Source: Methanobacteriota archaeon
Lineage (GTDB): Archaea > Thermoplasmatota > Thermoplasmata > RBG-16-68-12
DNA length: 56,882 nucleotides
Assembly (NCBI GenBank): GCA_005878915.1
Contig: VBML01000026.1
Location: forward strand, 1 to 56,882
Direction: 5' to 3'
Shown here one piece after another: positions 4,759-56,056 of this stretch. Both the position numbers and the translations under genes were made by a program. Under the pieces are notes generated by a model. It saw nothing but the letters and a program-made list of their open reading frames with translations. It had not been told where the DNA came from and ran no database searches. How positions within the stretch are numbered: the stretch's first letter is position 1; each line of letters starts with the position of its first letter.

Positions 4759-5150
4759 GGGGACACCAGCGCCAGGGTGGCGTCCTCAGAGCGCAACGAG
4801 TTCGTTGTCGGGTCCACGACAAGGCCAAGGGTTTCCAGGGCAGTGACCCCCAGGACGTGCAGATCGCCAGGGGCGGCGAAGACAATCCGGGTCACGCCCT
4901 GAAGTCCTTCCACTTCGATGGGGACATCACAGACCGGCCGCTCGATCCGGCGGCCTTCGATCGTCCGAATCCGCCACATCCTGAGGGGTCGATGTCCCAG
5001 CCCGATTGCGATTTCCTCGGGGACCCACGTGAACACGGACCCGGTGTCCACGACCAGGTCGAGAGTCTCCCGCCGTGCCAGGTCGGAGGAGAACACCGTG
5101 ACCCTTGCGCGGGTAATTCCCATGCGTCGCGGGAGCATCGTGGGCTCCAT
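4755..5150 (-). CDS. Retropepsin-like (clan AA) aspartic protease
   Basis: 131 aa with the catalytic-type motif LVVDTGS and a later LGVTALETLGLVVDP segment, typical of single-domain retropepsin-like proteases. Its stop overlaps the leuC stop (CTAA). Confidence 0.7.
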   Translation of the reverse strand: MEPTMLPRRMGITRARVTVFSSDLARRETLDLVVDTGSVFTWVPEEIAIGLGHRPLRMWRIRTIEGRRIERPVCDVPIEVEGLQGVTRIVFAAPGDLHVLGVTALETLGLVVDPTTNSLRSEDATLALVSP

Positions 5151-5232
5151 CCGCTTTCGGCGTACATGTAGATTACGTTGTCCGGCACGATTCGGGGAAG
5201 TCTTATCGCTCGCTTCGGCTTGCCGCTATACG

Positions 5233-5742
5233 ATGCAGACCCGCTTCAAGGGCCGCGTGTGGACGTTCGGGGACGACATTTCCACCGACCACATCATCGC
5301 GGGGAAGTACCTCGGGACCACGGACTCCAAGGTGTTCGCGGAGCACGCGTTCGAGGCCGTGGACCCGACGTGGGCAAAGAAGGTCCAGCCAGGGGACCTC
5401 ATCGTTGCAGGTGACAATTTCGGATGCGGCTCAAGTCGAGAGCAGGCCCCCGTGGCCCTCAAGACCCTCGGGATCTCCGCGATCCTTGCCAACTCATTCG
5501 CCCGCATCTTCTTCCGGAATGCGATCAACCTCGGATTCCCCGTCGTGGAGTGCCCGGGGCTGAAGACTGGGGTGAAATCGGGGGACATCGTTGAGCTCGA
5601 CATGGCCCGCGGGGAGGTTCATCTCCCGGGCGGCCCGGTGATGCGCTTCAAGCCCCTTCCCCCAAACGTTCTCGAGATCCTCGAAGCAGGCGGGCTCGTG
5701 CCGAAGCTCAGGAAGGAGCTCGCAACAAAGAGCGCCGGTTGA
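5233..5742 (+). CDS. leuD: 3-isopropylmalate / homoaconitate dehydratase small subunit
   Basis: Internal ATG 5233 of ORF 4918..5742 gives MQTRFKGRVWTFGDDISTDHIIAGKYL...GDNFGCGSSREQAP, the LeuD swivel-domain pattern. The upstream extension overlaps the protease gene and is Arg-rich. Confidence 0.9.
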   Translation: MQTRFKGRVWTFGDDISTDHIIAGKYLGTTDSKVFAEHAFEAVDPTWAKKVQPGDLIVAGDNFGCGSSREQAPVALKTLGISAILANSFARIFFRNAINLGFPVVECPGLKTGVKSGDIVELDMARGEVHLPGGPVMRFKPLPPNVLEILEAGGLVPKLRKELATKSAG

Positions 5743-6050
5743 TGCCCATGGGTTTGGGGAGATCTGTTGCATCAGGAATCGCGGGGGCTGCCGTCGGCTG
5801 GAGCACATCGGCCCTTAGCGCGGGAGGGGACTCCGGAGCGCACGTCGTCTTCGTCGTTGGCGTCGCGGCGTTCGCCGTCATCCTCCTCACGAACGTGATT
5901 GTGGGCCGAGACGGGCCACCGCGCCTGCCCCCTCCGAGGTGGCCGCGCGGGCTTCGACCGGTGCCCGTGGACTTCTCTCTCGAACCGCTTCGTCGTCCGC
6001 GCGGGGCTTGGGTTCCTCCCGTCCTGAGGTACCCGAGTCTCGAGCCGTGA
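5739..6050 (+). CDS. Small predicted single-pass membrane protein (weak call)
   Basis: The start overlaps the leuD stop (TGATG coupling motif at 5740-5744). One TM helix (VVFVVGVAAFAVILLTNVIV). The Pro/Arg-rich tail makes this uncertain. Confidence 0.3.
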   Translation: MMPMGLGRSVASGIAGAAVGWSTSALSAGGDSGAHVVFVVGVAAFAVILLTNVIVGRDGPPRLPPPRWPRGLRPVPVDFSLEPLRRPRGAWVPPVLRYPSLEP

Positions 6051-6063
6051 CCCACACTCTCTC

Positions 6064-6079
6064 GGAGAAACTTAAGCCG
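6064..6079 (+). repeat. Second copy of the leuB promoter-like motif (GGAGAAACTTAAGCCG)
   Basis: It matches 9209-9225 (GGAGAAACCTTAAGCCG) apart from one extra C. The similarity continues in GCAATCGCC / GCATCGCC. The two copies bracket the 979-aa surface-protein gene. Confidence 0.6.
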
Positions 6080-6156
6080 CAATCGCCGGTCGAACGGGAT
6101 CCAGATTCTCGAGGCGGGAACTCGCACGCCGCGCACCCTGACCCCTCCGAGGCTAC

Positions 6157-14075: not shown

Positions 14076-17042
14076 TCAAGGTCTCGGCGGTTCCGGATTG
14101 ATGGTGGCCACCCCACCCTGGCGACGGCGACGTAGCAGGAGGACGAGGAGGGAGACTACGATAGCGGCGAGGAGGACGATGACGGCGACCCAAGCGGCGC
14201 CCACGCCGACGGGAGTCTGGGTCGACGGTCTCGGTAGGGTGAAGCTCCATGTGAGATTGGACCCCATCGAATTCCCCAGAACATCGGTCAGGGTCCCGGC
14301 GAGCCGGACTTGGTACGTGGTCCCCTGGGTCAGGTTCGCGTCGGGCACGAAGACGAACGACGCATCGTCCGCGGTCCAGTAGAATGTGCCGTCGCCCGCA
14401 TCCCAGGACTGAGCCCCATCGGTTAGGTGAAAGGCGGCCTCCACACTGCTGCGGTTGACAGCTTCCGAGAACCGCGCCGTTATCGCGGCGATCGTGCCCG
14501 TGAGGTCCCCCCTCGGGCCATAGTCGACGACGGTTGGTGCGGTCGTATCGAGTGTGACGGCGAACTGCGCCGAGGCGGTGTTCCCCGCGGCGTCTGTTGC
14601 CTCGATGAGGAACGTGTGGCGACCGTCGGCGAGCCCCGCCATCGGCACGTCGTAGGGAAACAGGAAATCGGATGGGGCCCCTCCGTCGATGCGGAGGGCG
14701 GCCATCGCGAGGTGCGGGTCCGAAACCGCAAAGTTGAGGGTGGTGCCCCCTCGAACGATGGAGTTGTTCGCAGGTGAGGCGAGGTCGATGCTCGGCGGGA
14801 GCGAGTCGGTCGTGAACGAGAAGCTCGCCCTTGTCGTGTTCCCGACGGAGTCCCCCGCGGTCACGTCCAGGGTATGCGTCCCCTCACTCCAGGGAGCCGT
14901 GTCGATGTCCCAGGGCGGGGAGAAATTTGAAACGTACGCTCCATCCAGGACATAATAGGCGAATGACAGGTCGGAGTCCGTGACGGTCAGGTCGACAACG
15001 GTCCCCCGCGGGAAGATTGCGCCGTCGGGTGGGGAATTCAGGACGATTGTCGGGCCGGGGTTCGGCGGCGAGGTCGCCGACTCGAGGTTCTGCAGGGTCC
15101 AGTAGTTGAACACGGTCGAGCCGACGAGCACCCATCCCGTGAACCGGTCATTGCGGTACGCCCAGGTGACGTTCGGGTAGTAAATGGGAATGAAGGGGAG
15201 CTGGTCCGCGAGGATTCCCTGCTCCCAGCCGACCTCGCGGCTCCGGGTCGGGAAGTCCGGGGACGCACGGGAGCGGTCCGCGGCGGAGTCGAAGGGCGTG
15301 TCCGAGAAGCCCGCGACGTTCCGACCCGCGGCGGCGTTCGAGGAATGGAAGAGGTCGAAGAGGTAATCCGGGTCGCCGCGCGAGAGCGTCCACGGGTCGT
15401 TTGCGTGGACGTCGGGGCGCGATAGGATGGCGAGGTCGAAATCGCGGGCACCGACCCTCGAGAGAATGGTGCCGAATGCCGTCGGCCTCGAAATCACGTT
15501 AACGCCGACGGACCGGGCCGCGGCCGCGATCATCGCGCCCGAGGAGGCGAGCGCAGGGTTGTAGTCCGCCTGCGGGGTAAGGATCTCGACTTGCGAGGTT
15601 CCGAGTCGCGGGAAATTCCGGCAGTTCGTCCCATCGTTCTGGCAGGAGTTGGAACCGGTCTTCGTCCAGCCCGCATTGTCTAGGATCAGGGCCGCCCGCG
15701 TCGGGTCGTACCCGTAGTTCGGAAGCGTCCCGTTGAGCCAGCCGTCGTTGAAGGGGCTCACCATCCCCTGCGCGACCACCGCATGGTCCTGGAAGAGCAC
15801 GCGGACTATCGTCTGCGAATCGATCAGATGGACCATCGCTTGGCGAAATGGGAACCCCAAGTCCGAGGCGCGGGACGATGGCGGAAACGGGTCGTAGCCG
15901 AACGGCACCCTCCGCATGTTGAAGAGGAGGACCTTGGGGAAGAGATCAGGGGCCTCGACCAGGCCGATTCGGGGGTCCGACTCCAAATCCGGAAGGAACT
16001 CCGGAGGGAGGGTCCCGAGGATGAGGTCGATCTCGCCCGATTGGAGGGCGAGGACGAGCAGCTGCGTCGTCCGGTAGATCTTGAAGATGATGCCATTGTA
16101 TCGAGGGGCCCCGAACGCGTAGTCGAGATTCACGTCGAGTCGCACGAACGAGCCGAAGGACCACGTCCCGAACCGGAAATGACCGCTCCCGATGACATCC
16201 GCGTCCGTCATCTGCCAGGCCCCCGCGCACGGGTACTGGAACGGTCGGTACGACGTCTCGTCCGTCCGCACGCCCTGGCCGAACCTCGCGTCCGTCTCCG
16301 GATAGATTGCGAGCCCCCAGTCCACGTTGTCGCATCCGGCGGGGAACTGCGGTGGGGTCATCACGGGGTGCCGTCCGCCGCCCGTCCCCTCGAACTCATG
16401 TCGCGGCAGGATTGGAATTCCAAGGGTCGTCCACGGGAAGGGGGCGTACGCGGACGCGAGGGTGAATCGGAGGGCGCTCGTGTTCGTGCTGCTGTCTCCG
16501 TCGTCCACAGGGAGCACCCACAGCCATCGGTCGATGGTGAAGTTCGACCCGGGGCCGCCCCCGAGGTCCATCAGGGGCCTGAGGGGGCCGCTCGCGACGG
16601 GATTCAGGGCGAGGACATGGTACGAGAACAACACGTCCGCCGCCGTCACCGGGACCCCGTCGTGGAACCGCGCATTCCCGAAGTCGTAGAACACGGTGAC
16701 CGTCGTGCCGGAGATGTCGAACACTCCGACCTCTGAGCCGTCGAGGCGCCCGTTTCCGTTCTGATCGATTCCCACTGCGAGTCGCGGCGTGACGTTCCCG
16801 GTCGTCGCGTCCCTCTGCACAGGCGTGTCGTAGACGCGGGCGAGCACGGCCATCGTGTGGGGGTCGTCCAACAACATCGCGGTAAGGAGGTTCCGCATCT
16901 TCATTTGGTCGGAGCTCCCCACGGTAAGCATGGTGGCCGAGGCCGGGACGCGGTCATCCGCCGCCTGAGCTGGAAGGATGACGTTCATCAAAACCAAAAC
17001 CGCGAGGCCCACTACGACTGCCGAATCCCCCCGCGCGCGCAT
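14076..17042 (-). CDS. ABC-type solute-binding protein (family 5, peptide/nickel type) fused to Ig-like modules and a C-terminal TM anchor
   Basis: 988 aa. Signal peptide (VVVGLAVLVLMNVILPAQA), ~600-aa SBP family-5-like body, then Ig-like/SbsA-like modules (TTAPTVVDYGPRG...), a TM helix (AAWVAVIVLLAAIVVSLLVLLL) and RRRRQ. No cognate permease or ATPase genes are adjacent. Confidence 0.8.
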   Translation of the reverse strand: MRARGDSAVVVGLAVLVLMNVILPAQAADDRVPASATMLTVGSSDQMKMRNLLTAMLLDDPHTMAVLARVYDTPVQRDATTGNVTPRLAVGIDQNGNGRLDGSEVGVFDISGTTVTVFYDFGNARFHDGVPVTAADVLFSYHVLALNPVASGPLRPLMDLGGGPGSNFTIDRWLWVLPVDDGDSSTNTSALRFTLASAYAPFPWTTLGIPILPRHEFEGTGGGRHPVMTPPQFPAGCDNVDWGLAIYPETDARFGQGVRTDETSYRPFQYPCAGAWQMTDADVIGSGHFRFGTWSFGSFVRLDVNLDYAFGAPRYNGIIFKIYRTTQLLVLALQSGEIDLILGTLPPEFLPDLESDPRIGLVEAPDLFPKVLLFNMRRVPFGYDPFPPSSRASDLGFPFRQAMVHLIDSQTIVRVLFQDHAVVAQGMVSPFNDGWLNGTLPNYGYDPTRAALILDNAGWTKTGSNSCQNDGTNCRNFPRLGTSQVEILTPQADYNPALASSGAMIAAAARSVGVNVISRPTAFGTILSRVGARDFDLAILSRPDVHANDPWTLSRGDPDYLFDLFHSSNAAAGRNVAGFSDTPFDSAADRSRASPDFPTRSREVGWEQGILADQLPFIPIYYPNVTWAYRNDRFTGWVLVGSTVFNYWTLQNLESATSPPNPGPTIVLNSPPDGAIFPRGTVVDLTVTDSDLSFAYYVLDGAYVSNFSPPWDIDTAPWSEGTHTLDVTAGDSVGNTTRASFSFTTDSLPPSIDLASPANNSIVRGGTTLNFAVSDPHLAMAALRIDGGAPSDFLFPYDVPMAGLADGRHTFLIEATDAAGNTASAQFAVTLDTTAPTVVDYGPRGDLTGTIAAITARFSEAVNRSSVEAAFHLTDGAQSWDAGDGTFYWTADDASFVFVPDANLTQGTTYQVRLAGTLTDVLGNSMGSNLTWSFTLPRPSTQTPVGVGAAWVAVIVLLAAIVVSLLVLLLRRRRQGGVATINPEPPRP

Positions 17043-44427: not shown

Positions 44428-44437
44428 TTTATATAAG
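44428..44437 (+). promoter_or_regulatory. TATA box for the DUF835 receptor gene
   Basis: TTTATATAAG is preceded by GC-rich CGCGCAC (BRE-like). It is only about 17 nt from ATG 44449 and about 30 nt from in-frame GTG 44461, so the real start may be the GTG. Confidence 0.5.
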
Positions 44438-44448
44438 GTGTTAGACAC

Positions 44449-47049
44449 ATGAATGCATTCGTGGGCTGGCGACAGCTCTCCCCTCGACTAGCGATTGCCC
44501 TCCTGATGCTAGGCAGCCTAGCCGCGATCCCGCCGGCGTCCGCGGCGACGGACGTCCAGGCAGTCTCTCTCGCAACGGATCGCATCGACTACGTGAATGC
44601 CTCCGGGTTCAACCAGGTCACGGCGACCGCCACGGTCAACTTCAACGGCGCCGGGCCACTGGACCCGGTGATGTTCGAATGGTTCGCGCCGGGTGGCCCC
44701 TCACCCTTCCGCACCATGGAGGTCCCTCCGTCGCAGATCGCGACCCTAACCGCCACTGCATCCGACTCATGGGTCGTTGCCGGCGAGGGGAGTGGATTCT
44801 CGATTCTGGCGTCGATCAATCAGACCGTGGGCAACAACATGCTCCGTGTGACCTCCCCACCCGCCACGATCAACGTGTACAACCGGACGGGACTCGCTAT
44901 CGTGATGGACGTGGCGGTGACGACCTCGCCGGTATACGAGAACGGGACCGTCGCAACCGCGCGCGCGGACCTGAAGTATGCGTTCAACGCGAGCCATCTG
45001 CTGGGGGTCCAGTTCGACTGGTTTTATCCAGACGGGAGACCCGCGTATTCCGTGGTGGATTCGAGCCCTGTCCCCTTGTCGAACGCGAGTGCCCGAGCGA
45101 CGAGCAGCTGGACGATCGACCGCATTGGGACGGCGTTCCATGTGAACGCGACGTACCTCGGCGGGCCCCCGATCACGAACACGACGAGCTTCGACGTCCT
45201 CGAGCATCGGATCGGCAATTGGGTCCCCACCAACCCGTGGGTCGGCCGCCGGACCCTGGACCTGGCGTCGAGTCCGTGGGGGGTCTGCTCCAACGCCACC
45301 GTCCCGCAGGGGGCCGAGCTCTTCATCGAGGCGGGGGTCGAAATCCGGTTCTGCCCGGGTACGGGCCTGTCCGTGAGCGGGACCCTCACCGTTGACGCCC
45401 TCCCGACGAGGAAGGCGTACTTCCTGAGCCTGCCCCCCTTGGGGGAGCCGATGCGGGCGGGCGATTGGCGAGGGATCACGTTTTTCCCGGACGCCGCCCC
45501 CGACGCTTCCATCCTCTCGAACGTCGTCATCCAAGGCGTCACGGATGGGGTCGCTGTCCAAGGGACCGCGGTCACGATCGTAAACAGCACGATCGCCCTC
45601 GCGACCGGTGCCGCGATTCACCTTTCGAATTCGGCATCCCTCGTCGGGAACAACGAGATTACGCAGTCCGATGTGGGCATCCTCGTCCAGCGATCGGACG
45701 GCCCGACGATCGACTCGAATCGGATCCAGGGGGCCCGGGTCGGCATTCTTGTCGAGGACTCGGTCGCGGGCCTCGCGGGCAACGACGTCTCCTTGAGCAC
45801 GGAGGCGGGCATGAAGGCCGTCCGGTCGCGGGTCGTTGTGGACGGAGGGGTCTTCCGGGACAACGGGGACGTCGCCGTCTTCCTCACCGGCGTTCAGAGT
45901 GCGTATCTCCTGGGTTTGACCATCACAGGCGGCACGAACAGCCTGCGGGGGGACAACTCTCGGAATGTCGTCGTCGAACTGTCCACCCTGTCGGGTGCGC
46001 GCGATTGGTCCGTGCGATTGATCAACGTGACCGCGACGTTCATCAACACGACGCTCGCGGCAACACAGTACGACCTCGTCCTCATCGCCTCCCCCACGAC
46101 CTTGGTGAACAGCACCTACGGGAGGCTCTACCCGCCCCTGGGCTCGGCCCTCACGATCAAGAACTTCCTCCACGCGGTGGTGGAGTCGGACATCGTCGGC
46201 CGTCCACGGATCGCCCGGGCCTGGGTGAACGTGAGCTCGGACAACGTCGTTGTCGCGAGCCGACGGACGGACGCAGCGGGGGTGACCCGCTGGATCCTGT
46301 TGACGGATCGCATCGTGTTCCCGGGCCGCGTGCGGACGATGACGAACTCGATTGATGTCCGCTACGACGGCTATCTCGTCGAGGCGAGCCCCCGGACCGT
46401 GAGCATGATCACGAGCCATACGGAGCGCTTCTCCGTGATCCCGCTGACATCGAACCCCGGGGGGCCCTCCTTCGGAGTCGACCCGATGATCCTCGTCTTC
46501 CTCCTGGTCGTGATGGGGACCGTACTGTTGGCGATGCCTGCCATGCGACGTCGGCGGGCGTCCACGGGGCCGCCGCTGCCCCGCGCTGTGGCGGATGTCG
46601 TGTTGGAGCCCGGAAAGGCGTACCTTCTGAGCGACGAGAAGTCCGACCGGGCGTTCCAGATCTTTGCGTCCAAGCTCTCGAAGGGCGCCAAGGGCCTCGC
46701 GATCACTCGGATCTACCCGGACGAGGCGCGCCATCGGTATCGCCTGCGCGGCGCGTCGATCGTTTGGCTGAGCCGGGGTTACGGGAGAGAACGCATACGG
46801 CCCACGAACCTCGGCGCCCTAGTCCAGGAAGTCGAGCGGTTCGTGAGCGGAACGAAGGACACCGTAGTCCTCCTGGACGGACTGGAGTACCTTCTCGTCC
46901 AGAACGATCCGCAAAAGGTCGTCAAGTTCGTGCAGACGCTGTCGGACACCGCGTCCGTGCACCGCACGCGAATCCTCATCCCGTTCAACGTCAAGACGGT
47001 GGATGAGCCGCTCCGTGCCCTCATCACGCGGGACCTCCAGCCCCTGTGA
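44449..47049 (+). CDS. Transmembrane receptor-like protein: Ig-like x2 + parallel beta-helix ectodomain, one TM, cytoplasmic DUF835-like domain
   Basis: Signal peptide (LAIALLMLGSLAAIPPASA). Two similar Ig-like modules (F.WF.P.G.P). Beta-helix repeats (NSTIALATGAAIHLSNSASLVGNNEITQSDVGILV...). TM helix (ILVFLLVVMGTVLLAMPAM, then RRRRA). C-terminal LAITRIYPDE...IVWLSR...VVLLDGLEYLLVQND...FVQTL pattern. Confidence 0.85.
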   Translation: MNAFVGWRQLSPRLAIALLMLGSLAAIPPASAATDVQAVSLATDRIDYVNASGFNQVTATATVNFNGAGPLDPVMFEWFAPGGPSPFRTMEVPPSQIATLTATASDSWVVAGEGSGFSILASINQTVGNNMLRVTSPPATINVYNRTGLAIVMDVAVTTSPVYENGTVATARADLKYAFNASHLLGVQFDWFYPDGRPAYSVVDSSPVPLSNASARATSSWTIDRIGTAFHVNATYLGGPPITNTTSFDVLEHRIGNWVPTNPWVGRRTLDLASSPWGVCSNATVPQGAELFIEAGVEIRFCPGTGLSVSGTLTVDALPTRKAYFLSLPPLGEPMRAGDWRGITFFPDAAPDASILSNVVIQGVTDGVAVQGTAVTIVNSTIALATGAAIHLSNSASLVGNNEITQSDVGILVQRSDGPTIDSNRIQGARVGILVEDSVAGLAGNDVSLSTEAGMKAVRSRVVVDGGVFRDNGDVAVFLTGVQSAYLLGLTITGGTNSLRGDNSRNVVVELSTLSGARDWSVRLINVTATFINTTLAATQYDLVLIASPTTLVNSTYGRLYPPLGSALTIKNFLHAVVESDIVGRPRIARAWVNVSSDNVVVASRRTDAAGVTRWILLTDRIVFPGRVRTMTNSIDVRYDGYLVEASPRTVSMITSHTERFSVIPLTSNPGGPSFGVDPMILVFLLVVMGTVLLAMPAMRRRRASTGPPLPRAVADVVLEPGKAYLLSDEKSDRAFQIFASKLSKGAKGLAITRIYPDEARHRYRLRGASIVWLSRGYGRERIRPTNLGALVQEVERFVSGTKDTVVLLDGLEYLLVQNDPQKVVKFVQTLSDTASVHRTRILIPFNVKTVDEPLRALITRDLQPL

Positions 47050-47098
47050 CCCCTCCCGGCGGCACGGTTATTAGACGGCCCGGAAATACGCATCGTGC

Positions 47099-47818
47099 GT
47101 GGTTCGTCTCTACAAGACCTTCGTCCATGGGTTCGACGAGGAGATCGAAGGCGGGATTCCGCAGGGGCACGTCGTTCTTGTCGCGGGGCCCCCCGGGACC
47201 ATGAAGTCCTCCCTGGCGTACAGCATCCTGTACAACAACGCCCTCCATGACGGGACGTCCGGGGTCTACGTCACGATGGAACAGGACCGGGAGAGCCTGG
47301 AGTTCCAGATCACCCGCATGGGCATGGACCCGAAGAAGGTCGGGGACAAGGTGCGGATTCAGGACATCTCGCGGATCCGACGGGGGGTCGAGGAGCTGCG
47401 GGACACGTCACGGACCGGTTCTCCGGTCGAGAAACCGTGGCTCGACATCCTCAAGGGCCACCTCGAGGACGTCAAGGGGACGGGCGATTTCGCCCTCCTT
47501 GTCCTGGATTCCCTCCCGATCCTAGAAATCATCTCAGGGCTACGGGAGCGCCGGATCGGACTGTTCCACTTCTTTGGATGGTTGAAGGCACTCAAGGTCA
47601 CCACGTTCGTGATCTCGGAGGTCTCCCCGGACCCCAACATCGTTCGAGACGAAGACTTCCTTGCGGACGGGATCTTCGCGCTGACGATGGATCGCGTGGG
47701 GGAGCTGGATGTGTATCGGCGCATCCGGTGCGTGAAGATGCGCGGAGTGAACCACAATCCGGGGATTTTCACCCTGGAGGTCGAGGACGGCGCCTTCCGG
47801 GTCACGCGGGTGATCTAG
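47099..47818 (+). CDS. Single-domain KaiC/RecA-superfamily protein with non-canonical P-loop (GPPGTMKS)
   Basis: GFDEEIEGGIPQGHVVLVAGPPGTMKSSLAY, VYVTMEQ, LLVLDSL, RCVKMRGVNH. GTG start. Confidence 0.85.
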   Translation: MVRLYKTFVHGFDEEIEGGIPQGHVVLVAGPPGTMKSSLAYSILYNNALHDGTSGVYVTMEQDRESLEFQITRMGMDPKKVGDKVRIQDISRIRRGVEELRDTSRTGSPVEKPWLDILKGHLEDVKGTGDFALLVLDSLPILEIISGLRERRIGLFHFFGWLKALKVTTFVISEVSPDPNIVRDEDFLADGIFALTMDRVGELDVYRRIRCVKMRGVNHNPGIFTLEVEDGAFRVTRVI

Positions 47819-49020
47819 CTCGATTCCTGACGGAGCCTGAGGACTCGCAGGAGGGCCCGTTCTTCCGCGGAGAATCGCGCCTCGAGCCCTTCGAGGGAAT
47901 CCGCGGCGAGGAGCTTGATGCTCAGCGGGTTCCCCCGGGAGAGCCGGTAGATCTTCTCGAATTCCTCGTTTGGCATCCCCCTCGGGGCCAGCTTCCGGCA
48001 CTCCTGTTTCTCCAATCCCCCAATCGGCAGGACTTGCAACGCGATCGATTCCCGGAGGCGCGCGCCGTCGAGGAGCGGGGTTTCCGCGGTTAGGAGGAGC
48101 TTCCCCCCTCGCTTCCTCATGACTCCGATCAGCATCCGAGCCACCCCGTCGGGCGCGCGGTCCGCGTCGTCCAAGACGAGGAGCGCACGCGACGTCGGCC
48201 AGTCCCGCTCGAGAATTCCCTCCACCTCGTCGATGCGGGGGGCACGCTCCAGCAGGCGCGAGGAAAGGTCGCTGCGACCGACCGATGCGAGGAAGGCCCC
48301 CAGGGAACGCGTCATCCCCTCCAGCGGAGCCCCCTCCTTCGCGGTGTGCCAGAGCGTGTGTCGTTCCGGCTCGAGCGCCTCCAGGGCTTTCGACACGAGG
48401 GCGGTCTTTCCGATTCCCCGCGGGCCCACGACCAGGAGAGCGGGGGTCGTCGATGCGGCCCACTCGGCGATGGCCGCCAGCTCCGGCACGCGACCAAAGA
48501 AACTCTCGCCGGACGGTCGATCCTGTTCGTGGTGCGACATCGCGGCGCGTCCCCGCTCTGGCGTCACTCTCGCAAGGTCGAGGAGCCCCTCACGGTCCAC
48601 GTTCGAGAGGATCTCCGTCAGCGAGTACGGGCCGCCCGCGAGCTTGCGGGCCTCCCCCATGGCGAGGTCACGTACAGCTCCTCTCTCGTCCCGTACGGTC
48701 ACCATCGCCCGGTTCAGCTCCATGGCCAAGGCTTGTGCCGTCGAATGTCCCTCGGGGGTGATGAGGTAGACCTTCCTCTTCCGGACCTCACCCCGGACGC
48801 GCGCGGTGGACTCGGAGAGGCAGTTCTGCCCCTCGAGGGTCCTCATGGCGCGGGACACGTGGTTCACTCGAATCCGGAGGGCCCGCGCAATCCCCTCCTG
48901 CGTGAGCGGAAACGCGGCGTCTGCAATGTCCTTGTTCGCCGTGCGCTCGAAGAGGTGCAGCAGCGCGCGCTGATTGACGGTGAGCGTTCCCCGCCCGACG
49001 TGCTCCCCCAGACGAATCAT
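47815..49020 (-). CDS. Winged-helix + P-loop NTPase regulator (archaeal ATPase / STAND-like)
   Basis: N-terminal wHTH (LTQEGIARALRIRVNHVSRAMRTLEGQNCL...KVYLITPEG), Walker A VVGPRGIGKTAL, Walker B LLVLDDAD, and an LSRGNPLSIKLL motif as in STAND/LAL NTPases. ATG 49020 is preferred because the TATA box overlaps the first ATG (49047). Confidence 0.8.
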   Translation of the reverse strand: MIRLGEHVGRGTLTVNQRALLHLFERTANKDIADAAFPLTQEGIARALRIRVNHVSRAMRTLEGQNCLSESTARVRGEVRKRKVYLITPEGHSTAQALAMELNRAMVTVRDERGAVRDLAMGEARKLAGGPYSLTEILSNVDREGLLDLARVTPERGRAAMSHHEQDRPSGESFFGRVPELAAIAEWAASTTPALLVVGPRGIGKTALVSKALEALEPERHTLWHTAKEGAPLEGMTRSLGAFLASVGRSDLSSRLLERAPRIDEVEGILERDWPTSRALLVLDDADRAPDGVARMLIGVMRKRGGKLLLTAETPLLDGARLRESIALQVLPIGGLEKQECRKLAPRGMPNEEFEKIYRLSRGNPLSIKLLAADSLEGLEARFSAEERALLRVLRLRQESS

Positions 49021-49046
49021 CGCTAATCGACGATTTGACGGCGTCA

Positions 49047-49056
49047 TTAAAAAGGT
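49047..49056 (-). promoter_or_regulatory. TATA-like box for the wHTH-NTPase gene
   Basis: CCTTTTTAAT on the minus strand overlaps the first in-frame ATG (49047) and is centred about 31 nt upstream of the second ATG (49020). Confidence 0.45.
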
Positions 49057-49225
49057 ATCGTGGGCGAAGCGATGGCGAGGTCGATTCCATGTTCGCGGAG
49101 TTCCGGAAGTGGTGTCACGCGAGGGGGAAGGTCACCACCGTCCTCGGGATGGGGTTTTTCAAGTACCCTTGGCCGAAGTTGAAAGCAGAAGGTCCATCGG
49201 CCGGCTCTGCCGTGACCCGGGGGTA

Positions 49226-52200
49226 TCAGGCTCGATTTGCGGCCCTGATTGCGTCCTGGGCGTGCTCCCACGCTTCTCCGAATTCCTCGATGGCCTCGGC
49301 GTATTCGAGCTGGCCCCACTCCTGATAGGCGTCCAGGAGCTCCTCTTCCGCCTCGGCGATCTCGTGCTGGACTTCCTGCGTGTTGTTCGGGTTGCGGATG
49401 GGCGTGTCCCGCGCGTCCCCCAGAGCCACGAGGGCGAGGAGCTCGTCCGCCTTCACGAGGAGGTTCGCGATCAGATCGCACTCCGAGGCAAGCGTCGCGC
49501 GCTCCGTCGCGGTCCACCTGCGCTCGTCAAGGTTGCATGACACGGGGCCCCCCTCCTCCTGGAGGAGCGCTTCGACCGCGTCCTCTTCCTCCTCGAACAC
49601 CTCCTCGCCTTCTTTCGGGTTGAGGTGGGTCGCGTCGATCCACCACGGCTCCATTTCATACCGGAACGAGAGGTGGGCGACCATGTCCGAACCGAGGAAC
49701 AGGGCGACCGGAAGGCTCACGTCATCGGCGTGGAACTTCAGTGTAACGCCCCGCTTCCCATGGCTGGAGGTCACATCGAACCGCTGGAGCCACGCGTCCA
49801 CGCGGAGCCGCCCCTCGAAGCTGAGGTCCTTGTTGGGCCACCCCCTCGGCAGGTCGATCATCGTGACCGCGTCGTTCGCCCACGCGAGCCGGAGGGTCCG
49901 GTAGGCGGGTAGCTTGGGAGTCCACGAGGGGCCCAGCAGGACGCGCACCTCGTTGTTGCCCCTCCGGGTCACGGTGACGTCGGGGCCGAGGGCGACCGTG
50001 ATCCCCACCGGCTCGAAAGGATCCTCGATCCCCAGGCTCTCCCATACTTCCTCCTCCGCCTTGTCGAGGTGCTCCAGGAACTCCTTGTCCCCGCGGGCCA
50101 TCGCGACGTACTTCAGTGCTTTGATCCGCTGAATCGCCTCGTGCTTCAGGTCCCCGGGGGACGCGATGTGGATGGGCAAGGAAGTCGTCGAGGAACCGCC
50201 ATCATCGTCGGACGCCCGAAGGCGAACGAGGTAGTCCCCGGGCGAATACGAGTGGCTCACTCGACTCGACGCGGCAACGGGGAACGTCCCGCCGGGGCTT
50301 GGGAAGGGGTCGGGGCCTGCACCGTCGTTGAACGTCGTCGAAGTGGCCGTAGCCGATCCGTCGCCGAAGTCCCAGAGGAAGGTCAGGTCGTCGCTGCCCG
50401 GGTCCGTCCCTGCGCCGGTGAAGTCGATCGGGATGAAGGGGAAAAGGTCGCTGGAGGGCAGGTGCCCCGGAACGGTCTGTGCAACGTTCTTGATCGTGGG
50501 CGTGGGCGCGACGTTCCGGACATCGACCGAGGTGACGTACCGCGCGGACCCGCCGTCGTCATCGGTGACGGTGAGGGTCACTGTGCAGGCGCAGTCGTCC
50601 CCATACGTGTGGCTCGAGGCATCGCTCGCCGTGAACGGATACGTCCCGCCAGGAGAGCCGGGGGGATCAGGGCCGATTCCGTTGTTGTAATACACGTGCA
50701 GGTCCGTCGGGCCGAAGTCCCATGACCAGGAAAACGCGAGATCATCGCTGCCAGGGTCCGTCGCGGTGGCGGTCAGGGTGACCTGCGTGCCCTCGGATAC
50801 CCCAACCTTCGCGGAATCCACAGAGACTGATGGGGGCAGGTTCCCCACCGAGAACGTTCCGGACAACGTCGTAACACCGCCGTCGTCGTCCTGGGCCTTG
50901 ACCGTCCACGCGAAGCCGCCGTTGTCGCCGCAGACGACGGTCTGTGTGTCTGTGATGTCCCTCGGGTGCACCTGGGGGCTCGGGTCCGGATCCGGCACCA
51001 CCGCGGGGTCATTCGGATAGAACACGAGGCTGGACCACCCGGAGCACGACCCGCTCCAGGACACCGTCAGGTCGTCGCTGCCCGGATCTTGGATGCGGGC
51101 CTCGAACGTGAGCGTGGCGCCCTCGTCTCCCGAGGGGATGGCGGTTAGTTCGATGGAGGGTGAGGCGTTGCTCACCGGGACCGTGAGATCCTGCAGGACG
51201 GAGCCTTCGTCGTCGTCGACGATCGCGATTGTGATGGGATAGGCGAAGTCGTCGCCGTACGTGTGGGTGATTGTGAACGTCCCCGTAGCGGCCGGGGGAT
51301 CGTGCGTGGACGTGAGGGTGACGGTCTCCAGGGCCCCGCCGCCCCAGTCGATGAACGCCGTGTGCGTGTCGAGCCATCCTGGGTCGGAGAACGTCACCGT
51401 GATCGTCGCAGGCGAGCCTTCCACCGCACCCGTGACGAAGAAAGAGTCGATTCGCGGCGGGGCGTTGCTGATTGTGTATCCCGCGCTCGTGGACGCGGTG
51501 AGCTCACCGTCAGAGACTTCGACGGTCACCGTCCCCACGAGGTTGTCCCCGAACGTGACCGGGGGAGAAATCGGCGAGGACATCCAGCCCGTGTCCCAGG
51601 TCCCGTCGCTCGTGAAGTCCCAACGGTACTGGAGGTCGTCCCCGTCGGGGTCCGTCGACCCGCTCGCGTCGAACTGTATCGGCGAGCCCTCCACTCCTGT
51701 GAAAGGACCCGTGATGACGGCGGTGGGTGCGCGGTTCACGCTGAAGACGTCCACGATGGGGATCTCCGAATGGGCGTCCACGGTTTCATCCGCATTCGTG
51801 TCGACCTCGGCGCGGGGGAGCTCGATCCGTCCCGCGTGGAGGCGCGGAGTCTGGAGCTGGTATCGCAGCTTGATCCCCTGGTACGGGGTCGGCGCGTTCA
51901 GGTCCTTCCCCGTGACATCCGCCGCGGGAAGGTCGACCGCCCACGTCACGGTCTTCGTTCCGTCGGAGTTCTGTGTCTCGCTCGTGGGTGTGACGGAGTA
52001 GCTGCCGGGCACGACGGACCAGCCCGCGGGAATCCGGTCGGACACGATGGCCCCATGGGCGTCCACGTCTGACCCGCTGTTGTCGCCCTTCACCGCGATG
52101 TTCGTTGCGGCGACCGTGACGGATATGATCTGCCCCGCTGTACTCGGAATCTCCTTCCACATCGGTGCCTTCCCGACGACGATTGTTGCGTGTTCGCTCA

Positions 52201-52789
52201 GGTAGTTCCAAACGTCGATCTGCGTGTTCTTCGTCTCGGAGTCAAAATATGGACTCGCGATGATATCTTGGAGGGCCGTGGGCAGGATTTCGCCGCCGAG
52301 GACGATGTCGACGCCCGCTTGGGTGTACTGGAAGTGCTCCGTGCACCACCATGGGGGCGGTGGGAGGAAGCCCTGGAGCCATTCATCCGCGTAGCTGTAT
52401 GTGACGGAGCTTCCGGGGGAGAGTGTGGCGGTGGTCAGGGCGCCGTCTTGGGTCGTCGGGTCACCAGGATCGACGGCGAACTGTGCCGGACTCGGGCTCA
52501 TCAGCATGGAGGGTTCATCGACGACGACGGAGGCCGGGGCGGATGGCGATACGGAGACACGGTAGCCGACCGGCAGCGTGACGGTGAAGCCGCCGCGGTC
52601 GTACGTGATGTCCACCTGGGTGACCGTGACCCAACCGCGCGCGTATCCCTCCCAGATCTTGATGGGCCCGCCGGAGGTCGGCGAGGGAGCGCCAAGCAGG
52701 AGGGAGCCCGCCGCAGAGGAAGCGAGCACTGCTGCAAGGACAACACAGGCGAAACCCCGGCCCATTCGTCCCCCTTCGACTGCATGCAT
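49226..52789 (-). CDS. Giant secreted protein with ~6 PKD-like domains and the shared helical C-terminal module
   Basis: 1187 aa. Signal peptide (FACVVLAAVLASSAAG). Repeated ..DPGSDDL...W.FGDG...Y...G.Y.V.L...DDDGG.. units. The C-terminal ~310 aa align with the end of 10463..13282. An alternative start, ATG 52765, is preceded by GGGGGA. Confidence 0.85.
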   Translation of the reverse strand: MHAVEGGRMGRGFACVVLAAVLASSAAGSLLLGAPSPTSGGPIKIWEGYARGWVTVTQVDITYDRGGFTVTLPVGYRVSVSPSAPASVVVDEPSMLMSPSPAQFAVDPGDPTTQDGALTTATLSPGSSVTYSYADEWLQGFLPPPPWWCTEHFQYTQAGVDIVLGGEILPTALQDIIASPYFDSETKNTQIDVWNYLSEHATIVVGKAPMWKEIPSTAGQIISVTVAATNIAVKGDNSGSDVDAHGAIVSDRIPAGWSVVPGSYSVTPTSETQNSDGTKTVTWAVDLPAADVTGKDLNAPTPYQGIKLRYQLQTPRLHAGRIELPRAEVDTNADETVDAHSEIPIVDVFSVNRAPTAVITGPFTGVEGSPIQFDASGSTDPDGDDLQYRWDFTSDGTWDTGWMSSPISPPVTFGDNLVGTVTVEVSDGELTASTSAGYTISNAPPRIDSFFVTGAVEGSPATITVTFSDPGWLDTHTAFIDWGGGALETVTLTSTHDPPAATGTFTITHTYGDDFAYPITIAIVDDDEGSVLQDLTVPVSNASPSIELTAIPSGDEGATLTFEARIQDPGSDDLTVSWSGSCSGWSSLVFYPNDPAVVPDPDPSPQVHPRDITDTQTVVCGDNGGFAWTVKAQDDDGGVTTLSGTFSVGNLPPSVSVDSAKVGVSEGTQVTLTATATDPGSDDLAFSWSWDFGPTDLHVYYNNGIGPDPPGSPGGTYPFTASDASSHTYGDDCACTVTLTVTDDDGGSARYVTSVDVRNVAPTPTIKNVAQTVPGHLPSSDLFPFIPIDFTGAGTDPGSDDLTFLWDFGDGSATATSTTFNDGAGPDPFPSPGGTFPVAASSRVSHSYSPGDYLVRLRASDDDGGSSTTSLPIHIASPGDLKHEAIQRIKALKYVAMARGDKEFLEHLDKAEEEVWESLGIEDPFEPVGITVALGPDVTVTRRGNNEVRVLLGPSWTPKLPAYRTLRLAWANDAVTMIDLPRGWPNKDLSFEGRLRVDAWLQRFDVTSSHGKRGVTLKFHADDVSLPVALFLGSDMVAHLSFRYEMEPWWIDATHLNPKEGEEVFEEEEDAVEALLQEEGGPVSCNLDERRWTATERATLASECDLIANLLVKADELLALVALGDARDTPIRNPNNTQEVQHEIAEAEEELLDAYQEWGQLEYAEAIEEFGEAWEHAQDAIRAANRA

Positions 52790-52846
52790 ATTGATAGGGG
52801 GGCTTTAAAAGCCTTGGGGTTGGAGCAACTCCTACGCGCCGATTTT

Positions 52847-53992
52847 CTAGGAGCGACCACGCCGCCGCCGGGCGTCAACCTGCCGTTCTTTCTCCTTGAG
52901 AACCTGGTTCTCGAGGATCTCCATCAAGCCGCCCATGGCCTCGACCAAGTCCCAATCGAAGTGTTTCACATAGTACATGCCATGCGCCGTCGTGAATCGG
53001 GCGTGAAGGGATTGTTTCTGCCGATCCCCCTCTCCCTTGTACGTCTGCACGTGGACCGAGAGGGTTCGCGGGGTCACGATGTTCGCGAGCTTCTTCATCG
53101 ACTTTCGGATGACATCGTACAGCGCCTCGTAGACCTCCGACTGCTCCTCGAGCCCGCTGATTTGGACGAGGAGCTCCTCTCGTTCCCGGAGGCCCGCGAG
53201 GAGCTCGGCGAGGTCGAGCTTCGTCAAGATCCCGATGGGCTCCCCCCGCTCCACGACGATCACGCTGGAGATGTCGTGCTTCACCATCAGCCGGGCGGAC
53301 TCCGCAACCGTCGCATTCGGTCCGACGGTGACGACGGGGTATCGCATCGCGCCCTTCAGCTGCAGGGCGGAACGGGTCTTCTCGCCCGACACCTCACCCG
53401 CGTGCGCACCCCTCTTTGGCTGGGCGAACGCGTCCTGCAGATCTCGCACCCCGACAACCCCGATCAGGCGTCCGTTACGATCGAGGACCGGCAGCGACCG
53501 CTCCCCCAACCCTTGCATGGTGCGGATTGCATGCTCCACGGAGTCCTCTTCGGAAACCGTCTGCGGCGACGGCGTCATGACGTCTCGGACCTTCACGTCG
53601 GCGAACTCGTCGACGTCTGCGATCGCCCTCGTGAGGTCTGTTCGGCTCACGATCCCGACGAGCTTCTTTCGCTCGAGCACGGGGAATGCGCGGAAGCCGC
53701 CCTGGATCATTTTCTCCGCCGCCGTTGGCAGGTCATCGTCCGGGGTCACTTCCGGGACCGATTGCAAGAGGGTGGCGACGCTCGTCGTCGGCGGGAGGCC
53801 CCGCCGCCGCATGATGCCGGACAGCGTTACGAGGCCCTCGACGGTCTTCCCTCGGACGACAGGGAGCTCGTGGACCCCGTGCTTCTTCATCTTCCCGAGG
53901 GCCTCCCCCACGGTATCGTCGGGCCCCACGGTCACCGGCTCCTTCGACATCACGTCCCGGACCTGGAGGTCCTGAAGTTTGGAACGGCGCAT
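52847..53992 (-). CDS. Four-CBS-domain protein with C-terminal HPF/RaiA-like domain
   Basis: ATG 53992 gives MRRSKLQDLQVRDVM... Four CBS units (VRDVMSKEPVTV.., TLLQSVPEVTP.., VRDVMTPSPQTV.., AMRYPVVTVGP..). A ~100-aa tail has a beta-alpha-beta-beta-beta-alpha pattern (LLVQISGLEEQSEVYEALYDVIRKSMKKL...LSVHVQTYKG...SLHARFTT..GMYYVKHFDWDLVEAMGGLMEILENQVLKEKER). Confidence 0.8.
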   Translation of the reverse strand: MRRSKLQDLQVRDVMSKEPVTVGPDDTVGEALGKMKKHGVHELPVVRGKTVEGLVTLSGIMRRRGLPPTTSVATLLQSVPEVTPDDDLPTAAEKMIQGGFRAFPVLERKKLVGIVSRTDLTRAIADVDEFADVKVRDVMTPSPQTVSEEDSVEHAIRTMQGLGERSLPVLDRNGRLIGVVGVRDLQDAFAQPKRGAHAGEVSGEKTRSALQLKGAMRYPVVTVGPNATVAESARLMVKHDISSVIVVERGEPIGILTKLDLAELLAGLREREELLVQISGLEEQSEVYEALYDVIRKSMKKLANIVTPRTLSVHVQTYKGEGDRQKQSLHARFTTAHGMYYVKHFDWDLVEAMGGLMEILENQVLKEKERQVDARRRRGRS

Positions 53993-54032
53993 GCGGGAGC
54001 ACCCTTGGGGGGCACGTGGCAAGCTCCGAACA

Positions 54033-54042
54033 CTATTTAATG
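54033..54042. promoter_or_regulatory. Shared TATA-like box between the divergent CBS-HPF-like gene and acyP
   Basis: CTATTTAATG is the only AT-rich element in the 75-nt divergent spacer. It lies about 30 nt from the acyP ATG and about 45 nt from the CBS gene ATG. Confidence 0.5.
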
Positions 54043-54067
54043 TTCCTTCCCGCCTCGCGCCTCGCCG

Positions 54068-54343
54068 ATGCTCGCGCGGGCCCGCGTCGTATTTCGAGGT
54101 CGCGTGCAAGGAGTGTACTTCCGCGCGAACTGCCAGCAGAAGGCGCAGGAGCTCAGCCTTCGCGGATTTGTCCGGAACCTCCGGGACGGAATGGTCGAGG
54201 CCGTGTTCGAAGGGGAAAAGGCCGCGGTCGCCGAGTGCATCGAGTGGAATTCGACCCGTCAGCCGTACGCGCAGGTCGACCGCGCCGATGTGACGTGGGA
54301 GCCGCCGACCGGGGAATTCGTGGATTTCGAGGTACGACATTGA
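54068..54343 (+). CDS. acyP: Acylphosphatase
   Basis: 91 aa: VVFRGRVQGVYFR......A.ELSLRGFVRNL.DG.VEAVFEG, the acylphosphatase signature. The TATA box lies about 30 nt upstream (leaderless). Confidence 0.9.
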   Translation: MLARARVVFRGRVQGVYFRANCQQKAQELSLRGFVRNLRDGMVEAVFEGEKAAVAECIEWNSTRQPYAQVDRADVTWEPPTGEFVDFEVRH

Positions 54344-55357: not shown

Positions 55358-56056
55358 ATGGCCGCGATCCCGACATACGTCGCCGGCTTGGACGCGGCGC
55401 TCGGTGGGGGCGTCCCGGAGGGCAACGCCGTCCTCGTTGCGGGCGGGCCCGGGACGATGAAATCCACGTTCGCGTACAGCGTGCTCCACCGGAACGCCGC
55501 GAAGGGCATCCCGGGTCTGTTCGTGAGCCTCGAACAGCCCTCGACGGAGGTCGTGGAGAAGATGGCCCTCCTGGGAATGGCCCCCCTGCCCGAGGATCAG
55601 CTGTACGTCATGGACACGGCCCACCTCCGGCTCGCGTTCCGGGAGAAGGAGCGGGGGAAGGACTGGATCAAGATCCTTTCGGACCTCTTCCAGGAGGCGG
55701 TCCACGCGGGCGGGTACCGTCTATTCGCGTTGGACTCCCTCGAAGTCCTGTACGCGATCGTCGCATTCGCCGATGTCCGGCGGGAGCTGTTCCACTTCGT
55801 CTGGATGCTGAAGGACCTCGGATTCACGCCGTTCCTCGTCACGGAGATGCCCCTCGGCACCCCGGCGCGGGACCCGCGCCCCGAGGGGTTCCTCGCGGAT
55901 GGGATCATCCTGCTCGAGCAGTTCCCCGTCGGGACGATGGAGGTCCAGCTCCGGGTCCGGTGCGTGAAAATGAGGGGAGCCCACCACGATCGCGGGTACC
56001 TGCTGCTCGACTGGGACGGCGGGAAGTTCATCGCGACGAAGGCAGTCGTGCAGTAG
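55358..56056 (+). CDS. Single-domain KaiC/RecA-superfamily protein, paralog 2, same GTMKS P-loop
   Basis: GLDAALGGGVPEGNAVLVAGGPGTMKSTFAY, LFVSLEQ, LFALDSL, RCVKMRGAHH. Confidence 0.85.
   Translation: MAAIPTYVAGLDAALGGGVPEGNAVLVAGGPGTMKSTFAYSVLHRNAAKGIPGLFVSLEQPSTEVVEKMALLGMAPLPEDQLYVMDTAHLRLAFREKERGKDWIKILSDLFQEAVHAGGYRLFALDSLEVLYAIVAFADVRRELFHFVWMLKDLGFTPFLVTEMPLGTPARDPRPEGFLADGIILLEQFPVGTMEVQLRVRCVKMRGAHHDRGYLLLDWDGGKFIATKAVVQ

Follow-up and report, generated by a model that had tools for sequence, protein, structure and literature searches.

A conserved gene cluster of uncultured Thermoplasmata joining a DUF835 receptor, a KaiC-like ATPase, a wHTH-STAND NTPase and a PKD protein: a candidate KaiC-based signal-transduction module

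Introduction

KaiC-like ATPases have been proposed as 'signal transduction hubs' of the Archaea, with inactivated KaiC (iKaiC) domains, namely DUF835 and MEDS, as inputs (Makarova, Galperin and Koonin, 2017, taken here as summarised in Galperin et al., 2018; PMC5847659). In the latter work DUF835 carries the label 'iKaiC', with reference to Makarova et al. (2017), and REC-DUF835 response regulators are listed too. No experimental report on any DUF835 protein was found in the searchable literature; an earlier note, made from the DNA sequence alone, had mentioned both the proposal and this lack of experiments. The present study concerns a cluster of four genes on contig VBML01000026.1 of a Methanobacteriota archaeon (assembly GCA_005878915.1; GTDB lineage Thermoplasmatota, Thermoplasmata, RBG-16-68-12), the whole of which, 56,882 nt, is referred to as the window. 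The cluster encodes a membrane receptor with a DUF835 tail, a single-domain KaiC-like ATPase (KaiC1), a winged helix-turn-helix (wHTH) protein with a STAND-type NTPase and a large secreted PKD protein. It is a lineage-specific, conserved cluster of uncultured Thermoplasmata from soil, sediment and groundwater, and we hold with moderate confidence that it is most likely a KaiC-based signal-transduction module. Its core is KaiC1 with the convergent, sensor-less wHTH-STAND NTPase, the two being invariably linked. The DUF835 receptor is best read as the input, operonic with KaiC1 in most loci and dispensable, and the PKD gene, immediately upstream of the STAND gene, as a fourth member whose regulation by the module is unproven. 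The genes and the main parts of their products are the following.

44449-47049, + strand: receptor gene, 866 aa (Pfam, hydropathy scan, internal repeat)
46459-46551, + strand: transmembrane segment of the receptor, residues 671-701, with RRRR after it (Kyte-Doolittle peak 2.62)
46639-47034, + strand: DUF835/'iKaiC' domain of the receptor, residues 731-862 (Pfam PF05763, AlphaFold2, Foldseek)
47099-47818, + strand: KaiC1 gene, 239 aa (PF06745), starting 49 nt past the receptor stop
47815-47818: CTAG, where the convergent genes for KaiC1 and STAND overlap in their stop codons (sequence reading)
47815-49047, - strand: gene of the wHTH + STAND-type NTPase, open reading frame (ORF) of 410 aa (Pfam, PDB, AlphaFold2/Foldseek, alignment of 26 homologs)
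48736-48969, - strand: wHTH of this protein
47899-48501, - strand: its NTPase and helical domain with GNPL
49226-52789, - strand: PKD protein gene, 1187 aa (Pfam), 179 nt from the NTPase ORF and upstream of the NTPase gene

Like the predicted hub systems as they appear in the 2018 summary, the cluster combines a P-loop-less, KaiC-fold DUF835 domain on sensor modules with a single-domain KaiC-like ATPase beside it, in Thermoplasmata, and both are alike purely predicted. Unlike in those systems, the KaiC protein of the cluster is invariably accompanied by a wHTH-STAND gene and usually by a PKD gene, and it carries a deviant GTMKS Walker A motif; moreover, adjacency of DUF835 and KaiC genes was the exception (2/77) and not the rule in this sample. 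The pair of receptor-iKaiC and KaiC-like protein falls within the class that Makarova, Galperin and Koonin predicted, as far as that class is described in the summary, and the class is still hypothetical. No description of the combination of KaiC, wHTH-STAND and PKD genes, or of a GTMKS P-loop, was found in the searchable literature, which does not cover Makarova et al. (2017) itself.

Four characterised or structurally solved proteins are comparable to single components. The cyanobacterial circadian KaiC shares the PF06745 domain with KaiC1, whose best PDB sequence matches are KaiC CI domains; in contrast to it, KaiC1 has one domain instead of two, a deviant P-loop and scores far below the equivalog cut-off. 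With PH0952 of Pyrococcus horikoshii (PDB 6mfv) the window's NTPase aligns at both Walker motifs (A and B) and at GHPL/GNPL. PH0952 differs in its long TPR sensor and in lacking an N-terminal wHTH, and the window protein ends right past the helical domain. The E. coli protein MalT, whose partner proteins bind its nucleotide-binding oligomerisation domain (NOD) and so control it in trans, is the top fold match of the NTPase (PDB 8bob) and likewise joins a STAND module with a GxP helical domain to a DNA-binding domain. It differs in that its HTH is of LuxR type and C-terminal, while the wHTH of the cluster protein is N-terminal, and in its size of ~900 aa against ~400 aa, the cluster protein having no winged-helix/arm or sensor (SUPR/TPR) domain. 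ArlH/FlaH of the archaellum motor, a single RecA/KaiC domain encoded in the arl operon, binds ATP and binds its partner ATPase in a nucleotide- and phosphorylation-dependent manner. Among the fold matches of the DUF835 tail it ranks first (PDB 4yds); unlike ArlH, the tail is P-loop-less and membrane-tethered, and KaiC1 scores far below the ArlH cut-off.

Conservation of the Cluster in Related Genomes

Linkage was counted over loci with sufficient contig on the relevant side, which come from metagenomes and represent ~40 distinct KaiC1-clade sequences of at least 57% identity; the gene calls of locus L085 were included. A STAND partner lies beside KaiC1 in 33/33 loci. A DUF835 gene is found directly upstream of KaiC1 on the same strand in 30 of 32, with a gap of -6 to +68 nt, often 4 nt, and a gap of so few nucleotides argues for an operon. 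A PKD ortholog lies upstream of STAND in 22 of 24 loci, to which a 193-aa PKD remnant in L085 may be added. The stops of KaiC1 and STAND abut or overlap in all loci of the clade except L173. Directly observed are, besides the domain identities described below, the pairing of KaiC1 with STAND, the operon that DUF835 usually forms with KaiC1 and the usual order of PKD and then STAND. The earlier note had staked its proposal on recurrent co-localisation of the four genes in related genomes and on a DUF835 match of the tail, and both were found.

Where the receptor has full-length orthologs (51-58% identity), gene order is shared over all 20 kb of the region, and this extends to the housekeeping genes; since such collinearity proves nothing alone, the searches were anchored on each component. 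Starting from STAND, the gene converges on a KaiC1-type gene in all six contexts examined, and DUF835 is upstream of KaiC in four of them (809, 817, 238 and 218 aa). STAND homologs of ~400 aa reach down to 35% identity. Two more distant candidates were placed outside the family: P0233 (32%, L091), with no KaiC gene among its called neighbours and a negative KaiC profile, and P0234 (30%, L172), again with no KaiC among the called neighbours, on a contig that ends inside the gene.

The DUF835 anchor covered 80 genome loci by ORF extraction and phmmer and hidden Markov model searches, and KaiC genes were screened for a second time, with an iterated KaiC profile; the locus scan used an 8-sequence DUF835 alignment, the 30-sequence version being too diverse. 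Among the 77 DUF835 loci outside the orthologous group, the STAND gene was present in none, and the iterated profile revealed no hidden KaiC genes beside them. An adjacent KaiC gene, in both cases directly downstream, was present in two (L009 and L037). The beta-helix receptors that come closest to the group without belonging to it (L008 and L010) have neither KaiC nor STAND.

On the side of KaiC, relatives of 51-53% identity keep DUF835 and do not keep STAND (L009, L126, L127). Among those of 49% identity or less, all at GTMKS-type loci, neither gene is adjacent, and DUF835 occurs within 5 kb on the other strand in 8 of 43. The order DUF835 and then KaiC recurs in an unrelated context in L009, where a giant CARDB protein is followed by a 207-aa DUF835 protein and then KaiC (51%), and also in L037 and L126. 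In L173, a DUF835 receptor with a PKD ectodomain, a KaiC of 57% and a STAND of 35% identity share one 8.8-kb contig on which no flanking slot genes are visible; a complete four-subunit 2-oxoacid:ferredoxin oxidoreductase (POR) operon lies at 3879-6943 of that contig, between the KaiC1-type and STAND-type genes.

Components of the Cluster

KaiC1 matches PF06745 with E 2e-34 and 119.3 bits, and a second KaiC-like protein of the window, KaiC2, with 111.4 bits (cut-off 26.6 for both), in accordance with the two GTMKS genes that the earlier note had read from the sequence. The Walker A motifs, GPPGTMKS in KaiC1 (47186-47209) and GGPGTMKS in KaiC2 (55439-55462), depart from the canonical GxxxxGK[ST] by a Met in place of the Gly preceding the Lys, and KaiC1 has MEQ where the catalytic EE is expected. 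Neither the deviant Walker A nor the EQ varies within the KaiC1 and KaiC2 clades; the remaining KaiC-like genes of the fetched loci have the canonical form (GTGKT). More than 100 relatives with M, L, Y or F before the Walker A Lys were collected (97 GTMKS, 5 TLKS, 2 TYKS and 2 TFKS), counts that are biased by the scan pattern applied to KaiC matches in L001-L171; a bulky hydrophobic residue ahead of this Lys, replacing Gly, characterises a whole KaiC-like subfamily. Further PDB matches of KaiC1 are PH0186, PH0284 and SSO2452. Its scores stay well under the cut-offs of the circadian KaiC models NF006799 (75.7 bits vs 408) and TIGR02655 (38.4 vs 546), of the archaeal KaiC subfamily models TIGR03877, TIGR03880 and TIGR03881 (64-70 bits vs 248-307) and of the ArlH model (25 bits vs 215). 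No KaiA/KaiB/SasA-like partner was seen among the neighbours scanned, which comprised part of the window ORFs.

In the NTPase, Pfam recognises HTH_Crp_2 at residues 27-80 and AAA_16/ATPase_2 at 183-320 (41 and 36 bits, each above its cut-off), with weak matches to nSTAND1 and NACHT. The alignment of 26 homologs shows a strongly conserved wHTH and invariant Walker A (GPRGIGKT), Walker B (DD) and GNPL (372-375) motifs. The sole PDB sequence match is the STAND protein PH0952 (E 5e-9), its GHPL aligned with GNPL, and the AlphaFold2 model (pLDDT 82, single chain) finds MalT, Apaf-1, CED-4 and plant NLRs (NRC) as best Foldseek matches. On alignment and model, then, the protein is of STAND type, in which a helical domain bearing a GxP motif comes after the P-loop domain. 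It stops 36 residues past GNPL, after two helices, with no winged-helix/arm, sensor or repeat domain at its C-terminus; it therefore has no sensor domain. The convergent wHTH and P-loop gene with its GNPL motif and the stops overlapping in CTAG had been noticed before, correctly as to position; its ORF begins at 49047, and the start is probably M10 (49020), which gives 401 aa and not 410, as orthologs, the alignment and a TATA-like box 25 nt upstream of M10 suggest. Between box and start codon (49021-49053 in the window), several subclades among the 24 upstream regions compared repeat ATCGCG-like words, and TATCGCG N10 TATCGCGCG precedes STAND in L104, L112, L115, L119 and L107; these words may represent a candidate autoregulatory operator.

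The receptor has the architecture that the earlier note had described. A hydrophobic, signal-like segment (residues 10-34 in the hydropathy scan) is followed in the N-terminal region by two tandem, mutually homologous modules of ~105 aa (28% identity, E 1e-7), then by a NosD-type right-handed beta-helix at residues 355-517 (Beta_helix and NosD, E 4e-14 and 3e-13 in Pfam), a single transmembrane segment and the cytoplasmic tail. A PDB profile search with 16 receptors returned, as its sole match, a marginal one to NosD (E 7e-4), so that the Ig-like fold which the earlier note had given to the two modules is putative. The tail matches DUF835 with E 1.1e-24 and 87.2 bits (cut-off 33.1) over model positions 4-135 of 136. 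Its AlphaFold2 model (pLDDT 92.8; shallow alignment, single chain) has FlaH/ArlH, PH0284, DnaB, KaiC and RecA/Rad51 as best PDB matches in Foldseek (TM-score 0.6-0.74, E 7e-6 to 5e-4). GxxxxGK[ST] is absent from the tail and from 30 diverse DUF835 family members; the loop past strand 1, the would-be P-loop position, reads SDEKSD, and a Walker-B-like strand, VVLLDGLEYL (hhhhDG), is kept. According to the model, the DUF835 tail is a P-loop-less RecA/KaiC fold, in agreement with the 'iKaiC' label of DUF835 in PMC5847659.

The DUF835 family comprises 2247 clusters at 50% identity (exhaustive phmmer). Elsewhere the domain is fused to seven-transmembrane, NHL-propeller, PQQ/PEGA and Zn-ribbon sensor modules, often in tandem, and such varied fusions fit what is expected of a generic transmitter domain. 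The KaiC-paired tails form one clade in which long and short forms occur together. One subclade has, beside KaiC1, a DUF835 partner of just 218-285 aa with no clear transmembrane segment by hydropathy scan (L087, 8985-9698; L110, 7116-7967); judged from their sequences, these short forms look like a receptor cut down to its tail, that is, a putative soluble iKaiC partner.

The PKD protein, upstream of the NTPase on the same strand as had been noted, has three stretches each for PKD_4 (83 bits) and PKD (63.8 bits), above the cut-offs. It is a secreted protein in which the hydropathy scan found no C-terminal transmembrane segment; its start is likely M9 (52765). Across the clade, conservation covers the N-terminal 500-550 aa or so. 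A PKD repeat and a module of ~310 aa without a Pfam match make up the C-terminal ~390 aa (49226-50405, - strand), which share 45% identity with the C-terminal end of a PKD+VWA protein at 10463-13282 (+ strand). Since PKD orthologs elsewhere do not have this C-terminal extension, the module was shuffled between surface proteins in this lineage.

Syntenic Context and Alternative Explanations

A number of observations weigh against a signalling module made of these genes. Nearly all cluster loci sit in one block, in which S17e, ABC, Rpr2, M24 and in some cases GNAT precede the cluster, and CBS, AcP (not always), TatD, KaiC2 (not always) and TBP follow it. The housekeeping flanks are conserved about equally, so that vertical inheritance alone accounts for much of the recurrence. 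The slot between M24 and CBS holds a small DUF835 gene without KaiC, STAND or PKD in at least eight sister loci, L089 and L090 have the KaiC1-STAND-PKD trio without DUF835, and KaiC genes adjoin DUF835 genes in no more than two of the 77 loci outside the orthologous group. KaiC1 and STAND, being convergent, are not co-transcribed, and a TATA-like box is present at -30 to -40 in 24/24 distinct orthologous STAND upstream regions. As to the proteins, BLASTP detects no similarity between the tail and KaiC1, and hhalign of DUF835 against KaiC1 gives a topologically sensible register at a probability of 2% (E 0.023), which is not significant. Finally, the deviant P-loop and the change from EE to EQ may mean that KaiC1 does not hydrolyse ATP.

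In a first alternative, the four genes are neighbours through block inheritance in one Thermoplasmata lineage and do no joint work. The collinearity of the S17e/ABC-to-TBP region at 51-58% receptor identity and in more distant loci speaks for it, as does the age of DUF835 in the slot without the other three genes. The same holds for the large secreted-protein genes that fill much of the window and for the promoter-like boxes that STAND and PKD each possess. Against it stands the spacing of DUF835 and KaiC1, on one strand and with the short gap given above, which persists through the alternation of long (beta-helix) and short (235-285 aa, no clear transmembrane segment) receptor forms. Insertions and deletions (PmbA/TldD, HDAC, a 4-kb segment, KaiC2) are found at the cluster borders and never inside, the interior being spared, and the KaiC1–STAND–PKD trio enters or leaves the slot as one block. 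L173 keeps receptor, KaiC and STAND despite the inserted POR operon, DUF835 precedes KaiC in the unrelated context of L009, and DUF835 is itself a domain of KaiC fold. The kept spacing, the border-only insertions, the trio behaving as a block and the arrangements of L173 and L009 point to more than frozen synteny, and we consider mere block inheritance rather unlikely.

According to a second alternative, to which we likewise assign a low probability, the unit is KaiC1 with wHTH-STAND, perhaps with PKD, and the DUF835 receptor is incidental, predating the insertion of the unit and signalling via other partners. The invariable KaiC1–STAND linkage agrees with this, as do the two trio loci without DUF835, the eight sister loci with DUF835 alone beside CBS and the 75 of 77 other DUF835 genes without an adjacent KaiC. 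The tails of the DUF835-only slot genes are moreover the nearest relatives of the KaiC-paired tails, and with the eight DUF835-only loci this identifies DUF835 as the old resident of the slot. On the other hand, the operon-like gap survives the exchange of long and short receptor forms, independent pairs of DUF835 and then KaiC exist in L009, L037, L126 and L173, and DUF835 is present within 5 kb in 8 of the 43 more distant GTMKS-type KaiC loci. The DUF835-only loci all belong to sister Thermoplasmata (L011, L012, L033, L034, L041, L060, L083 and L174); their gene, of 213-437 aa, is convergent with the four-CBS gene, with stops 15-400 nt apart. DUF835–CBS is the older adjacency; in the window, the PKD gene now stands between the CBS gene (52847-54340) and the rest of the cluster.

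Defence systems often contain STAND NTPases, and weak, sub-threshold PADLOC matches over P-loop stretches (mad8, E 0.002; PDC-S01, E 3e-4) could hint at an anti-virus island around an Avs-like NTPase, a reading that is very improbable given the lack of any significant PADLOC match and of nuclease, protease or other effector domains, the DNA-binding wHTH and missing sensor repeats of the STAND protein, and the location in a stable core-genome block instead of a variable island.

Proposed Mechanism

If the cluster is a KaiC-based signalling module, the most plausible course of events would start with ligand-dependent changes in the receptor, which would pass via the pseudo-KaiC tail to KaiC1. 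RecA-fold paralogs commonly pair, and for this reason the tail is proposed to engage KaiC1, by docking to its RecA-like ring or by co-assembling with it. The nucleotide or phosphorylation state of KaiC1 would then act in trans on the sensor-less STAND protein, in a way that resembles the restraint of MalT by its partners; the role of KaiC1 as such a trans partner is what we infer by analogy. The STAND protein, once switched, would undergo NTP-dependent oligomerisation and bind DNA through its wHTH, with transcription as the output; the promoter of the STAND gene itself and the neighbouring genes are candidates for its targets. This three-step archaeal pathway, from receptor and pseudo-KaiC tail to a GTMKS KaiC-like ATPase serving as the trans 'sensor' of a minimal STAND protein and on to a wHTH transcription switch, is offered tentatively and, taken as a whole, is more doubtful than the signalling role of the cluster.

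The earlier note had gone one step further, with a pathway running from the ectodomain through the DUF835/KaiC pair and the wHTH-NTPase to the adjacent, adhesin-like PKD gene. The genes do recur together; the linear pathway goes beyond the evidence, since almost all recurrence falls within the syntenic block of a single lineage, DUF835 and the trio are separable, STAND and PKD each have their own box, and secreted proteins are common. A strict pathway of four genes also fits poorly with L087, where a BNR/LTD/VWA/CARDB protein replaces the PKD protein, and with L173, where the PKD gene is missing. The abundance of large secreted proteins in the window makes PKD adjacency alone mean little. The Pfam search found no HisKA/HATPase_c or REC domains in the four cluster proteins, which do not form a classical two-component system.

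Other Features of the Window

Three TATA-like boxes and the second KaiC-like gene complete the annotation.

44428-44435, + strand: TATA-like box TTTATATA, AT-rich, 13 nt before the start codon of the receptor gene (sequence; putative function)
49046-49053, - strand: TATA-like box TTTTTAAT, 25 nt upstream of the STAND M10 start (sequence and ortholog upstream regions)
52803-52811, - strand: TATA-like box CTTTTAAAG, upstream of the PKD gene (sequence; putative function)
55358-56056, + strand: KaiC2 gene, outside the cluster proper (37% identity to KaiC1)

The usual spacing of archaeal TATA boxes is -26, and the receptor box TTTATATA sits closer than that. KaiC2 has no DUF835 or STAND neighbour and is located between TatD and TBP solely in the subclade of the window. 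In the window the cluster is flanked by genes for an ABC transporter, an M24 peptidase and a GNAT protein on one side and for the four-CBS protein, TatD, KaiC2 and the TATA-binding protein (TBP) on the other. The TBP gene is at the right end. The DNA has 65% G+C, the encoded proteins are not acidic and the window is archaeal; Rfam and tRNA scans of it gave no matches. The four-CBS protein ORF (52847-54340, - strand) has 497 aa in the window against 379-391 aa in orthologs, and its additional N-terminal ~110 codons may be an over-extension of the ORF; the C-terminus has a weak S30AE (ribosome-hibernation) match (E 5e-4).

Large secreted multi-Ig/PKD/BNR/SBP proteins are unusually numerous in the window, at 6157-9096 (- strand), 10463-13282 (+ strand) and 14076-17042 (- strand). 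The N-terminally truncated protein at 2-1732 (+ strand) contains Big_5 and PKD domains, crosses the membrane once (residues 392-418) and has a pair of cytoplasmic wHTH domains of HVO_0163 type (HVO_0163_N); it would be a one-component transmembrane transcription factor. Its earlier description as a membrane-tethered wHTH protein stands. Of the similar beta-helix ectodomain ascribed to it, only a NosD-like terminal motif, GGNFWSDY...DPDGIGDTPY, is visible in the truncated N-terminus, and Pfam gave no beta-helix match.

Significance for Archaeal Signalling

The cluster as such will be no surprise to specialists; the constant wHTH-STAND coupling, the PKD gene and the GTMKS P-loop are features of which no description was found in the searchable literature, Makarova et al. 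(2017) excepted from it. The involvement of KaiC-like ATPases and DUF835/iKaiC domains in archaeal signalling is a hypothesis of comparative genomics, which the cluster turns into small, testable protein pairs, the soluble parts (a tail of 150 aa, an ATPase of 239 aa and a wHTH-NTPase of 401 aa) lending themselves to expression and to assays of binding, ATPase activity and DNA recognition. Two questions are raised by it, namely how a STAND NTPase is switched without a sensor domain, and how the conserved change from Gly to Met in the Walker A of a KaiC subfamily affects nucleotide handling. If the proposed pathway were true, NTPase switches of KaiC type and of STAND type would be wired in series in these archaea, as an alternative to two-component systems.

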